DNA from: a virus | Taxonomy: Duplodnaviria > Heunggongvirae > Uroviricota > Caudoviricetes | Virus record (IMG/VR): IMGVR_UViG_2667527965_000003 | Span: 1-48,868 of that record | Reading direction: 5' to 3' (one strand) | DNA length: 48,868 nucleotides | Part shown: piece by piece, positions 17,691-37,613 of the stretch | Position numbering within the stretch: position 1 is the stretch's first letter | Layout: the number at the start of each line of letters is the position of its first letter | The notes under the pieces: model-generated | The model's input: the letters and a program-made list of their open reading frames with translations, nothing else | Database searches by the model: none | Told to the model about the DNA's origin: nothing | Position numbers and translations under genes: made by a program

Positions 17691-17796
17691 TCGTTAAACA
17701 TGAGCTACCAGAAAACCCTTTTACTTCAGCCTGTCGATTTAGCCAAAAGGCTGCCTACCATACAAGCGATATGGGAATCCCCATATCGACAGCTAG

Positions 17797-17817
17797 GGCC
17801 TCTCCGGAGGCCTTTTT
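17797..17817 (+). terminator. Rho-independent terminator after the HNH-domain gene
   Basis: GGCCTC-TCCG-GAGGCC hairpin followed by TTTTT. Confidence 0.6.
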
Positions 17818-18163
17818 CACGCCCGGTGAATAGGTGATTCGAGCATGATCGATAATACCGATCGATACAAGAATATTGATCTATGAAATCGATTATTAAA
17901 TAGACACAGAACAGCAACAAATTACCGAAGGGCACCCTCTGACGCAGACGAAATACCCTCTGTCGATAGTGACATCTTTGCCATTTATCTGGCGCCAGGC
18001 TTTCCGTACAGATATTTACGGTCGACATTTCTGACGTGAGCCTTTGTTAAAAATAACGATCACTTTTTACACGTAAGTAGCAATAAAATTTATTTAAATC
18101 AATCAGATGAATGGGCTTGCGCAGCCATGTACTTCATGTGCATACTTAAGCCAAACGAATAAA

Positions 18164-18183
18164 TACTGTTTATACATACAGTA
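18164..18183. promoter_or_regulatory. LexA (SOS) box
   Basis: TACTGTTTATACATACAGTA fits CTGT-N8-ACAG with AT-rich spacer (LexA consensus TACTGTATATATATACAGTA). Confidence 0.65.
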
Positions 18184-18201
18184 TTTTGTTGTATGGTTTA
18201 G

Positions 18202-18327
18202 ATGCTACAGAAAAAAATGAATTTTTCTTCCGGCGAACTTATTAGGAAATTTGCGCCATTTGTTATTTTGGCTCTGTGGAGTGGATTTCTCCCCGCCGGG
18301 AGAGCGTATTTGGTGATAGCAAAGTGA
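18202..18327 (+). CDS. Possible small hydrophobic peptide (41 aa), not in the ORF track
   Basis: ATG at 18202, stop at 18325-18327; MLQKKMNFSSGELIRKFAPFVILALWSGFLPAGRAYLVIAK; about 20 bp downstream of the LexA box; translation unproven. Confidence 0.25.
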   Translation: MLQKKMNFSSGELIRKFAPFVILALWSGFLPAGRAYLVIAK

Positions 18328-18336
18328 GGAGGGGAT

Positions 18337-18531
18337 GTGAGCATAGAGGTCGCCGAAGCGATTAAAACAGTCTCGGAGGGCGGTAAGTTCGTCATTACTT
18401 GCAATAATGGGGAAATTACCAGCCTGGAGCGCGTTAGGGACGATCAGCACGTTCTCTCGCTTGCTGAGTTACTCTACCTTCTTCGAGAAGCTGGGTTCCG
18501 CATTGACGGAGCGGATAGCCTACTGCCATAA
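18337..18531 (+). CDS. Hypothetical small protein (64 aa)
   Basis: GTG start with AGGAGG RBS at 18327-18332; downstream of the LexA box. Confidence 0.4.
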   Translation: MSIEVAEAIKTVSEGGKFVITCNNGEITSLERVRDDQHVLSLAELLYLLREAGFRIDGADSLLP

Positions 18532-19192: not shown

Positions 19193-19393
19193 ATGGCGAA
19201 ATCATGGTTCCAGCATACCGATTGCACTACGGCGCAGGCCGACGAACTGATGGCTACGTACCGGGCCCGCGGCGTGGCCGTTGAACGGAGCCTCAATCCT
19301 GACTTCATCACCTGGACCGTCAGCGTCCGGCTGCCGGAAGCAAAGCGGCAGGAACGCACGCCGCGTACGTTCCGCCAAAAGGTCTGGGGGTGA
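19193..19393 (+). CDS. Hypothetical small protein
   Basis: 66-aa ORF between DUF1367-like gene and ninG. Confidence 0.35.
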   Translation: MAKSWFQHTDCTTAQADELMATYRARGVAVERSLNPDFITWTVSVRLPEAKRQERTPRTFRQKVWG

Positions 19394-19395
19394 GC

Positions 19396-20001
19396 ATGTC
19401 TAAGAAACCCCGCCGTAAGTGCACAAACCAGAGCTGCCGCGAGTGGTTCCACCCGGTGCGCAACGGCCAGGTGGTCTGCTGCTACGAGTGCGCCACTGCC
19501 GTCGCCAAAGCGCAGACCGCAAAGAACCGGGCCGAGGCTCTGCGTGCTGAGAAGAAACGCCAGCGCGAAGAGGAGAAGGCGCAGCGTGCGCGGCAGGCCG
19601 AACGCCGCCAGGCGGTGAAGCCATTAAGTTACTTTCGCGACCAGGCCCAACAGGCTTTTAACGAGTTCATCCGATACCGGGATCGGCATCAGCCATGCAT
19701 CAGCTGTGGTCGATATCACTACGGTCAGTATCACGCCGGGCATTACCGCACGACTGGTGCCAATCCGGAGCTGCGCTTCAACGAGGACAACTGCCATAAG
19801 CAGTGTTCGGCCTGCAATAACCATCTTTCTGGCAACCTTACCGCCTACCGTCCGGCGTTGATCGCCAAAATCGGACAGGCCCGCTTTGATGCCCTGATGG
19901 GGCCGCACGAATTACCGAAATGGAAGCGCGACGACTACATCAGGATCCGCGACGAGTACCGCGCAAAGCTCAAAAAACTAAAACAGCAGGTGGCTGCATG
20001 A
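19396..20001 (+). CDS. ninG: NinG/Rap-like recombination-associated protein
   Basis: ATG at 19396; multiple Cys pairs (CTNQSC, CCYEC, CISC, CSAC) and basic Lys/Arg-rich stretch typical of NinG. Confidence 0.65.
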   Translation: MSKKPRRKCTNQSCREWFHPVRNGQVVCCYECATAVAKAQTAKNRAEALRAEKKRQREEEKAQRARQAERRQAVKPLSYFRDQAQQAFNEFIRYRDRHQPCISCGRYHYGQYHAGHYRTTGANPELRFNEDNCHKQCSACNNHLSGNLTAYRPALIAKIGQARFDALMGPHELPKWKRDDYIRIRDEYRAKLKKLKQQVAA

Positions 20002-20138
20002 AACCAGAACTAATCGAATCGCTTCGCATGCGCTGGCTGCGCCTTCGCATTTATCGCCGCCCGGGAACGGTGCTGGTGGACTATCGCATCCTTCGTAACT
20101 TTATTCGCATCTACCAGATTGCAGGAGCTGCAGCGTGA
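19998..20138 (+). CDS. Hypothetical small basic protein (46 aa)
   Basis: ATG at 19998 overlapping the ninG stop; ends overlapping the next start; Arg-rich. Confidence 0.3.
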   Translation: MKPELIESLRMRWLRLRIYRRPGTVLVDYRILRNFIRIYQIAGAAA

Positions 20139-20824
20139 ATACTCAATACCTGGAATTTGTACGCCAGCAGCTCATCGTTGCGACTGCTGATCTGAGCGGG
20201 GCGACCAAAGGGCAGTTGATGGCCTGGCTGGAGAACGCCCAGTTCGATACCGGGACATTTAAGCGGAAGAAGCCTAAAGTATGGGACGAAGAAAGCGAGA
20301 AGTGGGTGCCGGTTGATAACCCACCGATCCCCGGCAAACAGTCACACGCAAAGGGCTCACACATTCCTCTGGTTCAGCCGGTCGAATACTCCACCGCGTC
20401 GTGGCGCCGGGCGGTCCTGTCACTGGAGGAACATCAGAAGGCCTGGCTGCTATGGAACTACAGCGAAAACACGCGCTGGGAGAATCAGGTGTCGATCACC
20501 CAGTGGGCATGGGGCGAGTTCAGGGCGCAGCTGGTTGGTAAGAAAGTGGCCGGTAAGACGATGGAGCGGTTGAAGGCATTAATCTGGCTGGCGGCGCAGG
20601 ACGTGAAAGCTGAACTGGCCGGGCGGGAGACTTACCAGAAGCAGGAACTGGCTGAGCTATGCGGTGTGAAGCCGGATAACTGGAGTCATAACTACGCCGA
20701 TTACTGGAATGCCATGTGCGCCATATTTGAGCGACTTGATAGTGATGCTTTACTGCGAGCAGTGAGAACACGATCACAACAAAAATCAGCAAATTCGCAG
20801 CAAGGTATTGCAAAAGTCAATTAA
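20135..20824 (+). CDS. Putative late-gene antiterminator (Q-like)
   Basis: 229 aa; GTG start with AGGAG RBS; positioned after ninG and before the lysis cassette as Q is in lambdoid phages; call is mainly positional. Confidence 0.45.
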   Translation: MNTQYLEFVRQQLIVATADLSGATKGQLMAWLENAQFDTGTFKRKKPKVWDEESEKWVPVDNPPIPGKQSHAKGSHIPLVQPVEYSTASWRRAVLSLEEHQKAWLLWNYSENTRWENQVSITQWAWGEFRAQLVGKKVAGKTMERLKALIWLAAQDVKAELAGRETYQKQELAELCGVKPDNWSHNYADYWNAMCAIFERLDSDALLRAVRTRSQQKSANSQQGIAKVN

Positions 20825-32752: not shown

Positions 32753-33133
32753 ATGGCACTGGTAGAAATCACAGCAGGTAACGTCTTCGCCGGTGCCAAC
32801 CTCCGCAAACTGGAGGTTGGTGCGGTAGTTGAAGTTGACGATGCGACGGCGGCGCGCTGGAAAGCATCTGGCAAGGCAAAAGACACCGACAAGAAGAAGG
32901 GTGAGAAGCTCTTTGACGAGTCATCCACGGTGGCCTCGCCGCAATCAGGCGATTTGCAGGAACAGCTCGCGGCGGTGACCAAGTCACGCGATGAGGCGAT
33001 GGAGCAGGTATCACAGTTCACCGAGCTGGCGGCGAAAGAGAAGGCAGCTTTCGATGCGCAGCTCGCGGCGGTGACCAAACGCGCTGAAGATGCAGAGGCC
33101 GCACTGGCAGAAGCAATCAAGAAGGCGAAATAA
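32753..33133 (+). CDS. Hypothetical head-associated protein with internal repeat
   Basis: 126 aa; repeated LQEQLAAVTKSRDEA / FDAQLAAVTKRAEDA segments. Confidence 0.4.
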   Translation: MALVEITAGNVFAGANLRKLEVGAVVEVDDATAARWKASGKAKDTDKKKGEKLFDESSTVASPQSGDLQEQLAAVTKSRDEAMEQVSQFTELAAKEKAAFDAQLAAVTKRAEDAEAALAEAIKKAK

Positions 33134-33135
33134 CC

Positions 33136-33516
33136 ATGGCTGACCCAATCACGGCGGCAGACGTGCAGGCGTTCCTCGGTGAATTGGGTTACTCCATCCC
33201 GGGAGCGCTGCTGGAGCCGATCCTCTGCGTGGTGAACAAAATCATCCCGTGTCTCGATGGGGCCGGGTATGACGACTGCACCGCAAAGCTGATCCTGATG
33301 TACGCGGCCGCGCTGATGGCGACGTCCTCCGGCGCGCGACGAATCAAATCGCAGGGTGCGCCGTCTGGCGCGTCACGCTCGTTTGAGTATGGCGACGACA
33401 GTATCACCTGGCTGCGCGACTCACTGGGTCGCCTCGATACCAGTGGCTGTACCGGGGAACTGCCTATCAGCGCCGGTAACAGCGTAGGCATGTTCATGGT
33501 TGTCGGGGGCTGCTGA
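33136..33516 (+). CDS. Putative head-tail connector protein
   Basis: 126-aa ORF in head-tail joining region. Confidence 0.4.
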   Translation: MADPITAADVQAFLGELGYSIPGALLEPILCVVNKIIPCLDGAGYDDCTAKLILMYAAALMATSSGARRIKSQGAPSGASRSFEYGDDSITWLRDSLGRLDTSGCTGELPISAGNSVGMFMVVGGC

Positions 33517-33689
33517 TGACCTGGACACCCGTAAGCGTCCGGCTGCCGCGCTCATTCACCCGCGTCTGGGTGCTGACCGACACCGGGCGGGAGACCACCG
33601 GCTACGTCAAATCGGACGGCGAGTGGTTCATTAACTGCCCGCGTATCCGGGCTACTGGCGCGGTGGTGCTGCGCTGGAAGGAGGACTGA
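33516..33689 (+). CDS. DUF551-like small protein (57 aa), absent from the ORF track
   Basis: ATG at 33516 overlapping upstream stop, stop overlapping next ATG; translated MTWTPVSVRLPRSFTRVWVLTDTGRETTGYVKSDGEWF...; W..VS..LP pattern resembles DUF551. Confidence 0.45.
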   Translation: MTWTPVSVRLPRSFTRVWVLTDTGRETTGYVKSDGEWFINCPRIRATGAVVLRWKED

Positions 33690-34045
33690 TGTCATCAGCT
33701 GCAAACTGGTCCTACACCGCCAAAGCCACTATCTGGCGCAAGGGTGCTGGCGGCAGGGATGAAAACGGTGACCCCATAAACGGCTACGCCGCTCCGGTAG
33801 TTATCATGGTCGATTATGAGGGCGGGCTGTCAAAGCGCATCGGCAACCTGGGCGCTGAAATTGTCGTGAAAAATACCGTCTGGACGGAGTACGCGCTGGC
33901 CGACGCTGGTGATTACCTGCTGATTGGCGTATCGACTGAAGCCGACCCGGTTGCCGCTGGCGCTGACGAGGTTCGGCAGGTCATCCGCTACGCCGACACG
34001 TTCGAGCGTGTAGCGGACGATTATGCAATTTTGACTGGAGTCTGA
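33689..34045 (+). CDS. Hypothetical structural protein
   Basis: 118-aa ORF in head-tail joining cluster. Confidence 0.4.
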   Translation: MSSAANWSYTAKATIWRKGAGGRDENGDPINGYAAPVVIMVDYEGGLSKRIGNLGAEIVVKNTVWTEYALADAGDYLLIGVSTEADPVAAGADEVRQVIRYADTFERVADDYAILTGV

Positions 34046-34046
34046 T

Positions 34047-34415
34047 ATGGCCGGGAAAGTGAGAGGCATCAATCAGGCGAAAGCCAACCTCGACAAGCTC
34101 ATTAGTGACGTGCAGGGCCGCAAGGTTGTCCGGGCCATCCAGTCAGCGCTAATCATCGGTAGCTCCCAAGCAGCGCTTTATACGCCTATCGACACTTCCA
34201 CGCTGCTGAATAGCCAGTTTCGTGAGATGGACGCCAACGGTACGAGGGTTACTGGAAGAGTGGGTTACTCGGCTAATTACGCGGTGTACGTGCATGATCC
34301 AAGCGTGCCGCAGACTTTCCGTCGGTCGACTGCACGAAAAGAGTTCCTGACTAAAGGTTTTGAGGATATGCGCAGTCAGATCGATGCGGTGATTAAGAAG
34401 GAGTTATCCCTGTGA
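34047..34415 (+). CDS. HK97 gp10-like protein
   Basis: 122 aa; segment SSQAALYTPIDTSTLLNS resembles the gp10-family pattern. Confidence 0.5.
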   Translation: MAGKVRGINQAKANLDKLISDVQGRKVVRAIQSALIIGSSQAALYTPIDTSTLLNSQFREMDANGTRVTGRVGYSANYAVYVHDPSVPQTFRRSTARKEFLTKGFEDMRSQIDAVIKKELSL

Positions 34416-34801
34416 CCCCTCCGATGTATAAGCGTTTTCGCAACGTTATCGTTGATGCCGGACTTACTACAGGCTACATCGTTCAGTCTCTTTTGTGGTC
34501 TGATTCCGGGAAACTTGCCGATCGGTTCATTGTGTTCCGCCCAAATGGAGGGACGGCGATAGACCGCGACATGGCGGCTGATTATTACGTCCTTGTTGAC
34601 CTTATCACGGGTAAGTCTCTTGGCGACAAATCAAAAGCTGAGGATGACGTTCAGGCCATCATCGACTATGTGAAAGCCAACCCGATGACAAATCGCTGCC
34701 TTGGGCAAATCTCAAATATGGGCGGCATACCATCTCCTGTAATGACTACCGAAGGGCGCATGGTGTGGCGCCTGCAATTTTCCTGTCTGTTTGGCGGATA
34801 G
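34412..34801 (+). CDS. Putative tail terminator / tail completion protein
   Basis: 129-aa ORF immediately upstream of major tail gene. Confidence 0.4.
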   Translation: MTPPMYKRFRNVIVDAGLTTGYIVQSLLWSDSGKLADRFIVFRPNGGTAIDRDMAADYYVLVDLITGKSLGDKSKAEDDVQAIIDYVKANPMTNRCLGQISNMGGIPSPVMTTEGRMVWRLQFSCLFGG

Positions 34802-35672: not shown

Positions 35673-36362
35673 ATGACACCAGTTAAAGAGTTTGGAGAAT
35701 GCCTTATTAGTGTCGGTGATAAGGACTACTTTTTCCGTCCGTCACTATTCGCGATGTCCAGAATTGGCGATCCTGTAAACATCGTTCAGACGTTTTACGA
35801 CCTCTGCAATGATGAAGTGGCTACTGTCATCCAGAAGGCTGCTGCATCCTACATTCATTCAGAATATGACCGTCTTCCTGAATATGTAATCAACTACATA
35901 CGGAGCGGGATACTGAGCCGCAAGGCTATCATGGCTGCGCATACAGTGCTGTCTGCGTGCTGCGATGATGACACAGGAAACCTTATTGGCTGGATGCAGC
36001 CAGGAAAAAGCCGGAAGCGTAGCTTTATGTGGCGGCAAGGTGTCATGCCGCCGCAGGATATGGTCATTATTGCTCAAAGTCTCATGATGCACGGCATTAT
36101 CGGCCAAGCTAAGTTACGCAAGCTGCAGCGGCACGAACCGAACGAGCCCACCAATGAGTTCAGGGCATTGGATTACATTATTGCCGCACGCAACCACTTC
36201 AACATCAGCAAAGAAGAAGCTGGACAGCTGACGATGACAGAGTTCCAGATGATGCTTGCCGTGAAATATCCTGAACAGAAGGGATATACCAGGGAAGAAT
36301 ACGATAGTGCGGCAGATGACTACTTTGCGCGACGCAAACGGCGGCAGGCTAAGCAGAAGTAG
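35673..36362 (+). CDS. Putative tail assembly chaperone
   Basis: 229 aa between major tail and tape measure genes; basic C-terminus; positional call. Confidence 0.4.
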   Translation: MTPVKEFGECLISVGDKDYFFRPSLFAMSRIGDPVNIVQTFYDLCNDEVATVIQKAAASYIHSEYDRLPEYVINYIRSGILSRKAIMAAHTVLSACCDDDTGNLIGWMQPGKSRKRSFMWRQGVMPPQDMVIIAQSLMMHGIIGQAKLRKLQRHEPNEPTNEFRALDYIIAARNHFNISKEEAGQLTMTEFQMMLAVKYPEQKGYTREEYDSAADDYFARRKRRQAKQK

Positions 36363-36638: not shown

Positions 36639-37220
36639 ATGATTAACGAATATGATTTCGTGACAGCGGCAGGTCATATAGCTAAACATGAAGCCGGTCA
36701 CTGGCTTGCGGCGTTTAAATTAGGCTGGAACCCAAGAGGTATAGGCTTGAGAGTGCCGTCTCATGCTAAAGATCACATGGGTTATTCAGAAACAAGTCAC
36801 AAAGTCGATTTAAGCAGCATTGAGGATGTCCGGGATTACGCAAGAGGCAGGGTAAAAATTCTCTACAGTGGCGTATATGCAGAGCACTTTGACGGAAAAG
36901 ACTTTGATCACGAATCCATAATGCGTGATATGAAGCGTGGCGGCGGTGCTTATTCTGATTTCTGGAAAGCTGAAGAAATCTACTTCTTTTACTACAACTG
37001 CCTCGACATAAAGGGAACGTGGGAGCAAGAGTTTCAGCCTATTATTTGCGACGTTCAGCTCATGATCGAAATGCATTACGACTTCATCATCTCTGTAGCC
37101 AAATACGTCATGGCAAGGGCAAACTTTGTTGGTCAGAGTATAGAGGTTTCATCCTCCGACCTGATCAGGATATTCAAAAATAGCACCATTAAGCTTCCTG
37201 ATCATGACCCTCTTCGTTGA
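36639..37220 (+). CDS. HExxH-motif protein (candidate zinc metallopeptidase), moron
   Basis: 193 aa; HEAGH near N-terminus (IAKHEAGHWLAAF); low GC; inserted between tail chaperone and tape measure genes. Confidence 0.4.
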   Translation: MINEYDFVTAAGHIAKHEAGHWLAAFKLGWNPRGIGLRVPSHAKDHMGYSETSHKVDLSSIEDVRDYARGRVKILYSGVYAEHFDGKDFDHESIMRDMKRGGGAYSDFWKAEEIYFFYYNCLDIKGTWEQEFQPIICDVQLMIEMHYDFIISVAKYVMARANFVGQSIEVSSSDLIRIFKNSTIKLPDHDPLR

Positions 37221-37325
37221 GTGTGTTCCCGTTTCCGGTCGATTGAGATCAATAAATCAGCGTTTGCCGTTGCGCCTGTGCTATTCCTGGGTAGGATGTT
37301 CATTTTTACCAATGGGGATAGGGAT

Positions 37326-37613
37326 ATGAGAAAGACGATGTTGTTGTTAGCACTAAGTTGCTCATTGTCTGCTGCGCATGCAAACAGCGATATGAGATCA
37401 ACACTTCAAGCTTCTGAGAATGCAATTTGTCAGGATAACGCAAAAAAAGAGCAGTGCATTACAGCGGTTCAGAAGCTCATGTTTGCAGTCAGCAAAGTTA
37501 CTGAGCTTAATGAAAACTGCAAGAAGCCGAATGGCAATGTTGGAATTGAACAGCAATGCCAACAGTCTGAAGAAGCTATAGGCTACATAAATAGCCTGGT
37601 AAATAAACCATAA
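37326..37613 (+). CDS. Secreted Cys-rich small protein, moron
   Basis: 95 aa from ATG at 37326; signal peptide MRKTMLLLALSCSLSAAHA; several Cys; followed by terminator. Confidence 0.45.
   Translation: MRKTMLLLALSCSLSAAHANSDMRSTLQASENAICQDNAKKEQCITAVQKLMFAVSKVTELNENCKKPNGNVGIEQQCQQSEEAIGYINSLVNKP

Follow-up and report, generated by a model that had tools for sequence, protein, structure and literature searches.

Closest described systems

The closest described counterpart of the gene examined here is gene 12 of Salmonella phage ES18, whose product (YP_224150.1) has 59 aa. It is flanked by gene 11, which belongs to the DUF7370 family, and by gene 13, and the starts and stops of these genes overlap. 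ES18 gp12 is itself listed as 'function unknown', so a match to it names a gene and does not explain it. Very small neck proteins have a precedent: lambda gpW (68 aa) is a head-completion protein of a siphovirus and shows that neck components may have a size of ~60 aa. In RefSeq, ES18 gp12 and its homologues from SPN3UB and Oslo bear the label 'DUF551 domain-containing protein'. In the literature, DUF551 (PF04448 / IPR007539) figures as a portable domain found in early or accessory proteins of phages, examples being YfdS of the E. coli CPS-53 prophage and an Ea22 variant, V2 (PMC10834534, PMC4776307).

The DNA analyzed in this work (referred to as the window; 48,868 nucleotides) represents an ES18-like prophage, a virus of the Caudoviricetes (IMG/VR record IMGVR_UViG_2667527965_000003). 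On its plus strand, at 33516..33689, it contains an open reading frame with an ATG start and 57 codons plus TGA (33687-33689). The predicted product, MTWTPVSVRLPRSFTRVWVLTDTGRETTGYVKSDGEWFINCPRIRATGAVVLRWKED, has 57 aa, a mass of 6.6 kDa and a pI of 9.8. Given its 46% identity to ES18 gp12, its similar length and its position within an equivalent set of overlapping genes, this frame is identified as the orthologue of ES18 gene 12 (PHROG 1261); it has diverged, and nothing essential sets the two apart. The window gene and its homologues are referred to below as gp12, and the products of the adjacent genes are numbered as in ES18.

Reading frame and its overlaps

The gp12 frame is coupled to both of its neighbors, as proposed in an earlier reading made from the sequence alone (the sequence-only reading), which had described a small ORF of 57 codons with overlapping start and stop. 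At the start, within the sequence TGATG (33514..33518, +), one A belongs both to the stop codon of the 126-aa ORF upstream and to the gp12 ATG; at the end, within a second TGATG (33687..33691, +), the gp12 TGA and the ATG of the 118-aa ORF downstream likewise have an A in common. When the window was compared with related loci (86 copies in total), the GCTGATG context was found at the start of 70 copies, and TGATG or TAATG at the end of 56, with an inserted gene at this point in most of the others.

Two putative translation signals were recognized from the sequence. A GGGGG run (33505..33509, +), located 6 nt before the gp12 ATG within Gly-Gly codons of the upstream gene, is weakly Shine-Dalgarno-like. 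The sequence AGGAGG (33679..33684, +) lies in the last codons of gp12 (TGG AAG GAG GAC TGA, encoding W-K-E-D), 4 nt before the next ATG, and may function as the Shine-Dalgarno site of the downstream gene. No promoter- or terminator-like site was found between 32598 and 34581, and the GC content of gp12 (0.64-0.65) is like that of the upstream adaptor gene, with no compositional break.

The 57-aa ORF falls under the default cutoff of the ORF listing (60 aa). The statement of the sequence-only reading that such a track misses short genes holds for this one, which we consider real for the reasons given in the next section. Length cutoffs of 60 aa thus hide phage genes that are real and under selection. 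The 57-aa gene itself is an ordinary short gene concealed by such a cutoff and of little importance beyond annotation hygiene.

Taken alone, an open frame of 57 codons is unremarkable. The GC content around the ORF is 60-65%, and by a simple estimate from stop codon frequency the chance of 57 stop-free codons at this GC is ~0.2; moreover, the other frames of the same stretch contain several spurious ORFs of 44-50 aa. These values would suit a chance open frame in GC-rich DNA, and the double use of the gp12 3' end as a downstream Shine-Dalgarno site would suit a spacer maintained for the coupled translation of the neighboring genes. The case for a gene therefore rests on comparative evidence.

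Conservation and selection

The predicted product matched phrog_1261 with an E value of 9.6e-33, its residues 1-57 being aligned with profile positions 1-57 of 57. A search of a collection of 5.8 billion proteins yielded 160 homologues, nearly all of 56-57 aa (160-274 across searches). To examine the slot itself, we used 80 IMG/VR viral contigs fetched solely by similarity of the upstream gene (gp11 at least 96% identical) plus five annotated loci. A homologue of the 57-aa protein was detected by tblastn in all 85 of these loci. Intact ORFs of 56-61 codons with an ATG start were found in 84 of the 86 copies (window included); of the other two, one is cut by the end of the locus and the second is an artefact of start extrapolation in mEp013. 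Wherever the related locus examined was long enough, an intact copy was present in the same slot.

The pattern of variation is of the coding type. The median dN/dS was 0.20 (2882 pairs of 77 distinct coding sequences), with 98% of pairs below 0.5, and the third codon position varied 2.3-2.6 times more than the first two. In an alignment of 22 sequences, whose identity to the window protein extends down to 46%, eleven residues are invariant (P11, V17, W18, T21, D22, K32, G35, W37, C41, V51 and W54). The 57-codon frame is almost certainly a genuine protein-coding gene under purifying selection.

The same observations, complemented by a confident structure model (pLDDT 95) and by the profile and fold results that tie the protein to a known domain family (see below), effectively refute the view that the frame is not a gene, to which we assign only a very small probability. 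For the spacer in particular, relatives exist in which the two neighboring genes are coupled directly, with nothing between them.

A further explanation, highly improbable in our view, is a gp11-gp12 fusion protein, in which programmed -1 frameshifting at the GGGGG run would extend the adaptor at its C-terminus by gp12. The gp12 frame is open from 33480, i.e. upstream of the gp11 stop codon, a run of five G residues lies at 33505-33509, and a few database proteins do fuse DUF7370 with gp12 or with sequence from other frames (P0081, P0151, P0247, P0259, P0280 and P0282; P0259, P0280 and P0282 have 161 aa). However, these proteins carry several frame changes or read a third frame, and most originate from assemblies of metagenomes or raw reads; they most likely reflect faulty assembly and not biology. 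In addition, C GGG GGC is not a canonical slippery heptamer (X XXY YYZ), gp12 has kept its ATG and the TGATG overlap, as would be predicted if it were initiated independently, and in four loci (L065, L071, L080 and L082) another gene separates gp11 from gp12.

Distribution and existing annotation

When 50,697 phage records were searched by tblastn, the 57-aa protein was found in 41, from phages of Klebsiella, Salmonella, Erwinia, Escherichia, Enterobacter, Cronobacter and Hafnia. The description of the gene as unannotated is correct for the ORF track used in the sequence-only reading and does not extend to public data: the identical protein has been deposited under four accessions (KQJ07445.1, OJP98051.1, MCI5011516.1 and GAB0972726.1), as 'hypothetical protein [Escherichia coli]'. 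The gene family is already known, since it is present in the ES18 genome record as gene 12, has its own PHROG and includes this deposited protein.

Individual genomes may nevertheless lack the annotation. In E. coli GN25 (NZ_CP139196.1), which has the closest of the E. coli prophages, an intact homologue of 56 aa (L001:2940-3110) has been skipped by RefSeq/PGAP, and the next annotated gene, encoding a DUF6527 protein (L001:3107-3424), begins at its stop codon. GN25 was at one stage considered as a case of replacement of the 57-aa gene by DUF6527, but tblastn and ORF extraction revealed the intact homologue, with DUF6527 inserted after it. The idea of a replaceable cassette was dropped for close relatives on this account.

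Dozens of homologues are entered as '50S ribosomal protein L13', including those in RefSeq complete E. coli genomes and in Klebsiella prophage records (among others NZ_CP069571.1, NZ_CP098229.1, MK448231.1 and MK714353.1). Taken at face value, this name would make the 57-aa protein a homologue of L13. No L13 model of Pfam or NCBIfam reached even E≤10 with the window protein or with any of four homologues, and BLASTP against the E. coli L13 sequence gave no alignment. The size of 57 aa, the position in a phage neck operon and the DUF551-like fold are also at odds with the name. We see practically no chance that this homology is real; the name looks like a mis-annotation passed on between records, and it keeps propagating.

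Relation to DUF551

The sequence-only reading had called the peptide DUF551-like and had named a profile search for this domain as a check. In the direct search, Pfam DUF551 (PF04448) did not match the window protein even at E≤10, and so its gathering threshold of 22 bits was not reached. The same model gave 22.8 bits with ES18 gp12, just above this cutoff, and 16.5 bits with the homologue from Klebsiella phage 2b.

Searches in the opposite direction were more productive. A profile of the gp12 family, run against 1.84 billion representative proteins, matched no more than 24 proteins at E≤1e-3. Those of short length belong to the family, and five of the longer matches, P0164, P0165, P0168, P0169 and P0170 (library-wide E values of 1e-6 to 7e-4), scored 40-53 bits with PF04448. 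The alignment of the gp12 family with five DUF551 proteins by hhalign gave a probability of 98.2% and an E value of 4.7e-14 over 40 columns, a result to be read with the caveat that the five proteins were chosen through their similarity to the query profile. When an HMM built from these five proteins was used to search the six-frame translation of the window, the 57-aa ORF was the sole match (E value of 1.9e-12), and no second DUF551-like ORF was found there.

The structure model of the 57-aa protein, which has a single domain (pLDDT 95.3), predicts a small SH3/Tudor-like beta barrel, which may be viewed as a minimal version of the DUF551 fold. A Foldseek search of BFVD, in which the DUF551 matches are predicted and not solved structures, returned as best matches almost exclusively proteins named 'DUF551 domain-containing protein' (TM 0.7-0.82, probability 1.00, E values of 2e-3 to 5e-2). 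Besides the predicted fold, gp12 and DUF551 have in common an N-terminal W-I-x-V-x-x-R-L-P motif, a V-x-V-x-T-D-x-G strand-turn and a G-x-W hairpin. They differ at the C-terminus: the gp12 family ends 2-3 residues past its last conserved Trp (...V-L-R-W-(K/R)-E) and lacks the HW(M/Q)PLPxPP tail, whose W-x-P-L-P-x-P core is invariant in the five aligned DUF551 proteins. They also differ in setting, since members of the gp12 family are basic, free-standing and confined to a slot among neck genes, in contrast to the portable domain of the literature. The canonical DUF551 matches were located among runs of small ORFs and not in neck clusters.

It is very probable that the 57-aa protein is related to DUF551 by remote homology and a shared fold. 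The term DUF551-like is thus appropriate in this sense, although formal Pfam membership does not apply to the window protein, and the check by profile succeeded through ES18 gp12 and the family profile and not through a direct Pfam match.

A likeness to the foldon of T4 fibritin was also considered for the hairpin encoded at 33591-33632 (residues 26-39; T-T-G-Y-V-K-S-D-G-E-W-F-I compared with A-Y-V-R-K-D-G-E-W-V-L). The PDB profile match covered 15 residues with an E value of 0.47 and probably reflects a chance beta-hairpin; this candidate was rejected.

Neck gene neighborhood

The gene upstream of gp12 (33136..33516, +) encodes a 126-aa homologue of ES18 gp11 (DUF7370 / PHROG 786) with a pI of 4.4. 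The best matches of a model of this DUF7370 protein were phage head-to-tail adaptors, and it is a probable adaptor itself. The gene downstream (33689..34045, +) occupies the position of ES18 gene 13 and encodes a 118-aa protein of PHROG 797, likewise with a pI of 4.4, which showed no similarity to ES18 gp13 by tblastn; it is presumed, by elimination, to be the head-closure (stopper) protein. Next come the genes of a tail completion (Neck1) protein (gp14; 34047..34415, +; PHROG 5, named 'HK97 gp10 family' by RefSeq in relatives), of a tail terminator (gp15; 34412..34801, +; Pfam Phage_tail_terminator_3, 167.7 bits) and of an Ig-domain major tail protein. With the major capsid protein gene and an adaptor-like gene on the upstream side, and Neck1, terminator and major tail protein genes on the other, gp12 does lie in a head-tail joining cluster, where the sequence-only reading had placed it.

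PDB sequence searches with gp11, gp13 and gp15 retrieved no solved close relative. The capsid protein of the window had distant matches only (5wk1 and 9ocb), and the one paper found to cite both entries describes the tail of the Shigella siphophage Sf11 and not its neck. Compared with solved neck components (adaptor, stopper or head closure, tail completion and tail terminator proteins), the 57-aa protein exhibited no similarity of fold or sequence.

Two other features of this region deserve mention. Between the major capsid and adaptor genes, at 32753-33133, there is a 126-aa ORF rich in Ala, Glu and Lys (PHROG 25242, with a weak DUF7302 match), which stands where ES18 has gene 10, a far shorter CDS of 189 bp. 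Further downstream (35673-36362 and 36639-37613), a DUF6246 gene, homologous to that of ES18 gp17, precedes the tape measure gene; the ES18 record indicates a possible +1 frameshift at the gp17 3' end, of the tail assembly chaperone type.

Occupancy of the slot among relatives

The genes are ordered alike in ES18, mEp013, Klebsiella phage 2b LV-2017 and E. coli prophages, running from those of the decoration and major capsid proteins through a small ORF and gp11 to gp15 to the major tail protein and DUF6246. Even the most divergent short members of the family that were found (P0157, P0160 and P0161) have the DUF7370 gene on one side and, on the other, the next neck gene, beyond which come the genes of the terminator, major tail protein, DUF6246 protein and tape measure. 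This single position in ES18-type siphovirus modules of Enterobacterales was seen for all gp12-family members whose context was examined. With only 24 profile matches among 1.84 billion representatives, the gp12 clade is narrow and tied to this type of module.

The slot is faithfully kept, but its borders are not closed. In 27 of the 81 loci in which both neighbors were found, extra genes are present just before or just after gp12, which is never replaced or lost there. Both junctions flanking the 57-aa gene are insertion hot spots. The inserts include DUF6527 (confirmed by Pfam), homing endonucleases of the GIY-YIG and HNH types (recognized by motif) and ORFs of 50-93 aa that belong to no family; examples are L030:3656-4093, L065:3484-4023, L001:3107-3424, L023:3555-3791, L019:3547-3780 and L071:3375-3656.

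In one locus a 51-aa ORF (L006:3548-3703) is situated between gp12 and gp13 and ends with VVLRWRED, compared with VVLRWKED in the window gp12, a single Lys/Arg change. This suggests that the insertion may have duplicated the 3' end of gp12 that bears the putative gp13 Shine-Dalgarno site.

On a wider scale, gp12 is much less frequent than its neighbors: gp11 was found in 300 phage records, gp13 in 245 and gp12 in 41. The gp11 and gp13 genes of Salmonella phage Akira and of Mannheimia phage 587AP2 abut, with no gp12 between them. Cronobacter phage ENT47670 carries in this slot a 90-aa ORF that is unrelated and coupled to the same degree, and Klebsiella phage VLCpiS13e an unrelated hydrophobic ORF of 44 aa. 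Related modules thus work without gp12, which is not universal to this type of neck; it is a lineage-specific addition to the neck operon.

Possible role of gp12

The charge of the window protein is complementary to that of its neighbors, with a pI of 9.8 (family median 10.0) against 4.4 for both of them. The mechanism that we consider most likely, at slightly under an even chance, is that gp12 serves as a lineage-specific accessory of head completion or of the neck. According to this model, gp12 would be transcribed with the late operon and translated from the adaptor gene by termination-reinitiation coupling. Its last codons would supply AGGAGG for the downstream gene, so that gp12 would be made in step with the neck proteins. 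The basic barrel could then attach to the acidic ring of the adaptor, of the stopper or of both, or else to the end of the DNA at the portal, and gp12 would act as a minor neck component or assembly factor.

This role is favored by the coupling on both sides, the exclusive slot, the fixation within the clade and the lack of the hallmarks of morons. A resemblance to proteins of the lambda gpW type may also be noted, as gp12 is very small and is encoded, and presumably made, together with the head-tail joining proteins. As for published virion analyses, the one relevant proteome, that of mEp021, comprises 16 proteins identified from bands of a 10% gel, a method that would probably miss a protein of 6.6 kDa; the paper on Midgardsormr38 contains no proteomics.

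Nearly as likely is a role outside the virion, in which gp12 would be a real but non-structural, moron-like accessory expressed late, with a barrel that binds a target unrelated to virion assembly (e.g. in host takeover, defense or counter-defense). Its standing derives from the portability of DUF551, which is characteristic of phage and prophage proteins of the early or accessory kind and whose canonical matches lie outside neck clusters, from the acceptance of foreign genes at the adaptor/stopper junction (the 27 loci described above, ENT47670 and VLCpiS13e) and from the related necks that function without gp12. The absence of the gp12 fold from solved neck proteins points the same way. In these respects gp12 does resemble a moron: its junction takes foreign genes in relatives, and the gene is missing from related modules. 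Unlike typical morons, however, it has neither a promoter or terminator of its own nor a break in GC content, and it is coupled on both sides and fixed in every close relative examined. Moreover, an accessory gene that stands on its own should turn up in a variety of contexts, whereas even the divergent members of this family are known from a single slot.

A more specific version of the neck accessory model, which we put forward tentatively and hold to be possible rather than probable, is that ES18-type siphoviruses have recruited a narrow clade of the widespread DUF551 domain to serve specifically as a fifth neck gene, placed between those of the adaptor and the stopper, with a basic SH3-like barrel that would bind the acidic rings or the end of the packaged DNA. 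If true, this would be the first concrete molecular role for DUF551, and it would suggest that other DUF551 domains are small binding modules. A clade locked into the neck operon is in any case a tractable place to test what DUF551 binds.

Other small ORFs of the window

Two more short ORFs had been named in the sequence-only reading as genes missed by the track, and they fared differently. For the 41-aa ORF (18202..18327, +), no support as a gene was obtained: it had no PHROG or Pfam match, and megablast of the segment that holds it (17700-18340) against 5,426 complete E. coli genomes gave no match. The ORF that follows it, of 64 aa (18337..18531), matches PHROG 340.

The 46-aa ORF (19998..20138, +), by comparison, matched phrog_2705 over its full length (E value of 2.9e-28) and had no Pfam match. 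It is coupled between the genes of NinG (19390..20001) and antiterminator Q (20135..20824), and in E. coli DNA that is 94% identical RefSeq places a 'YlcG family protein' at this point, between ninG/rusA and Q. On these matches it is identified as a real and known small gene of the YlcG family (PHROG 2705). This gene is hidden inside a longer ORF call of 72 aa that starts at 19920.
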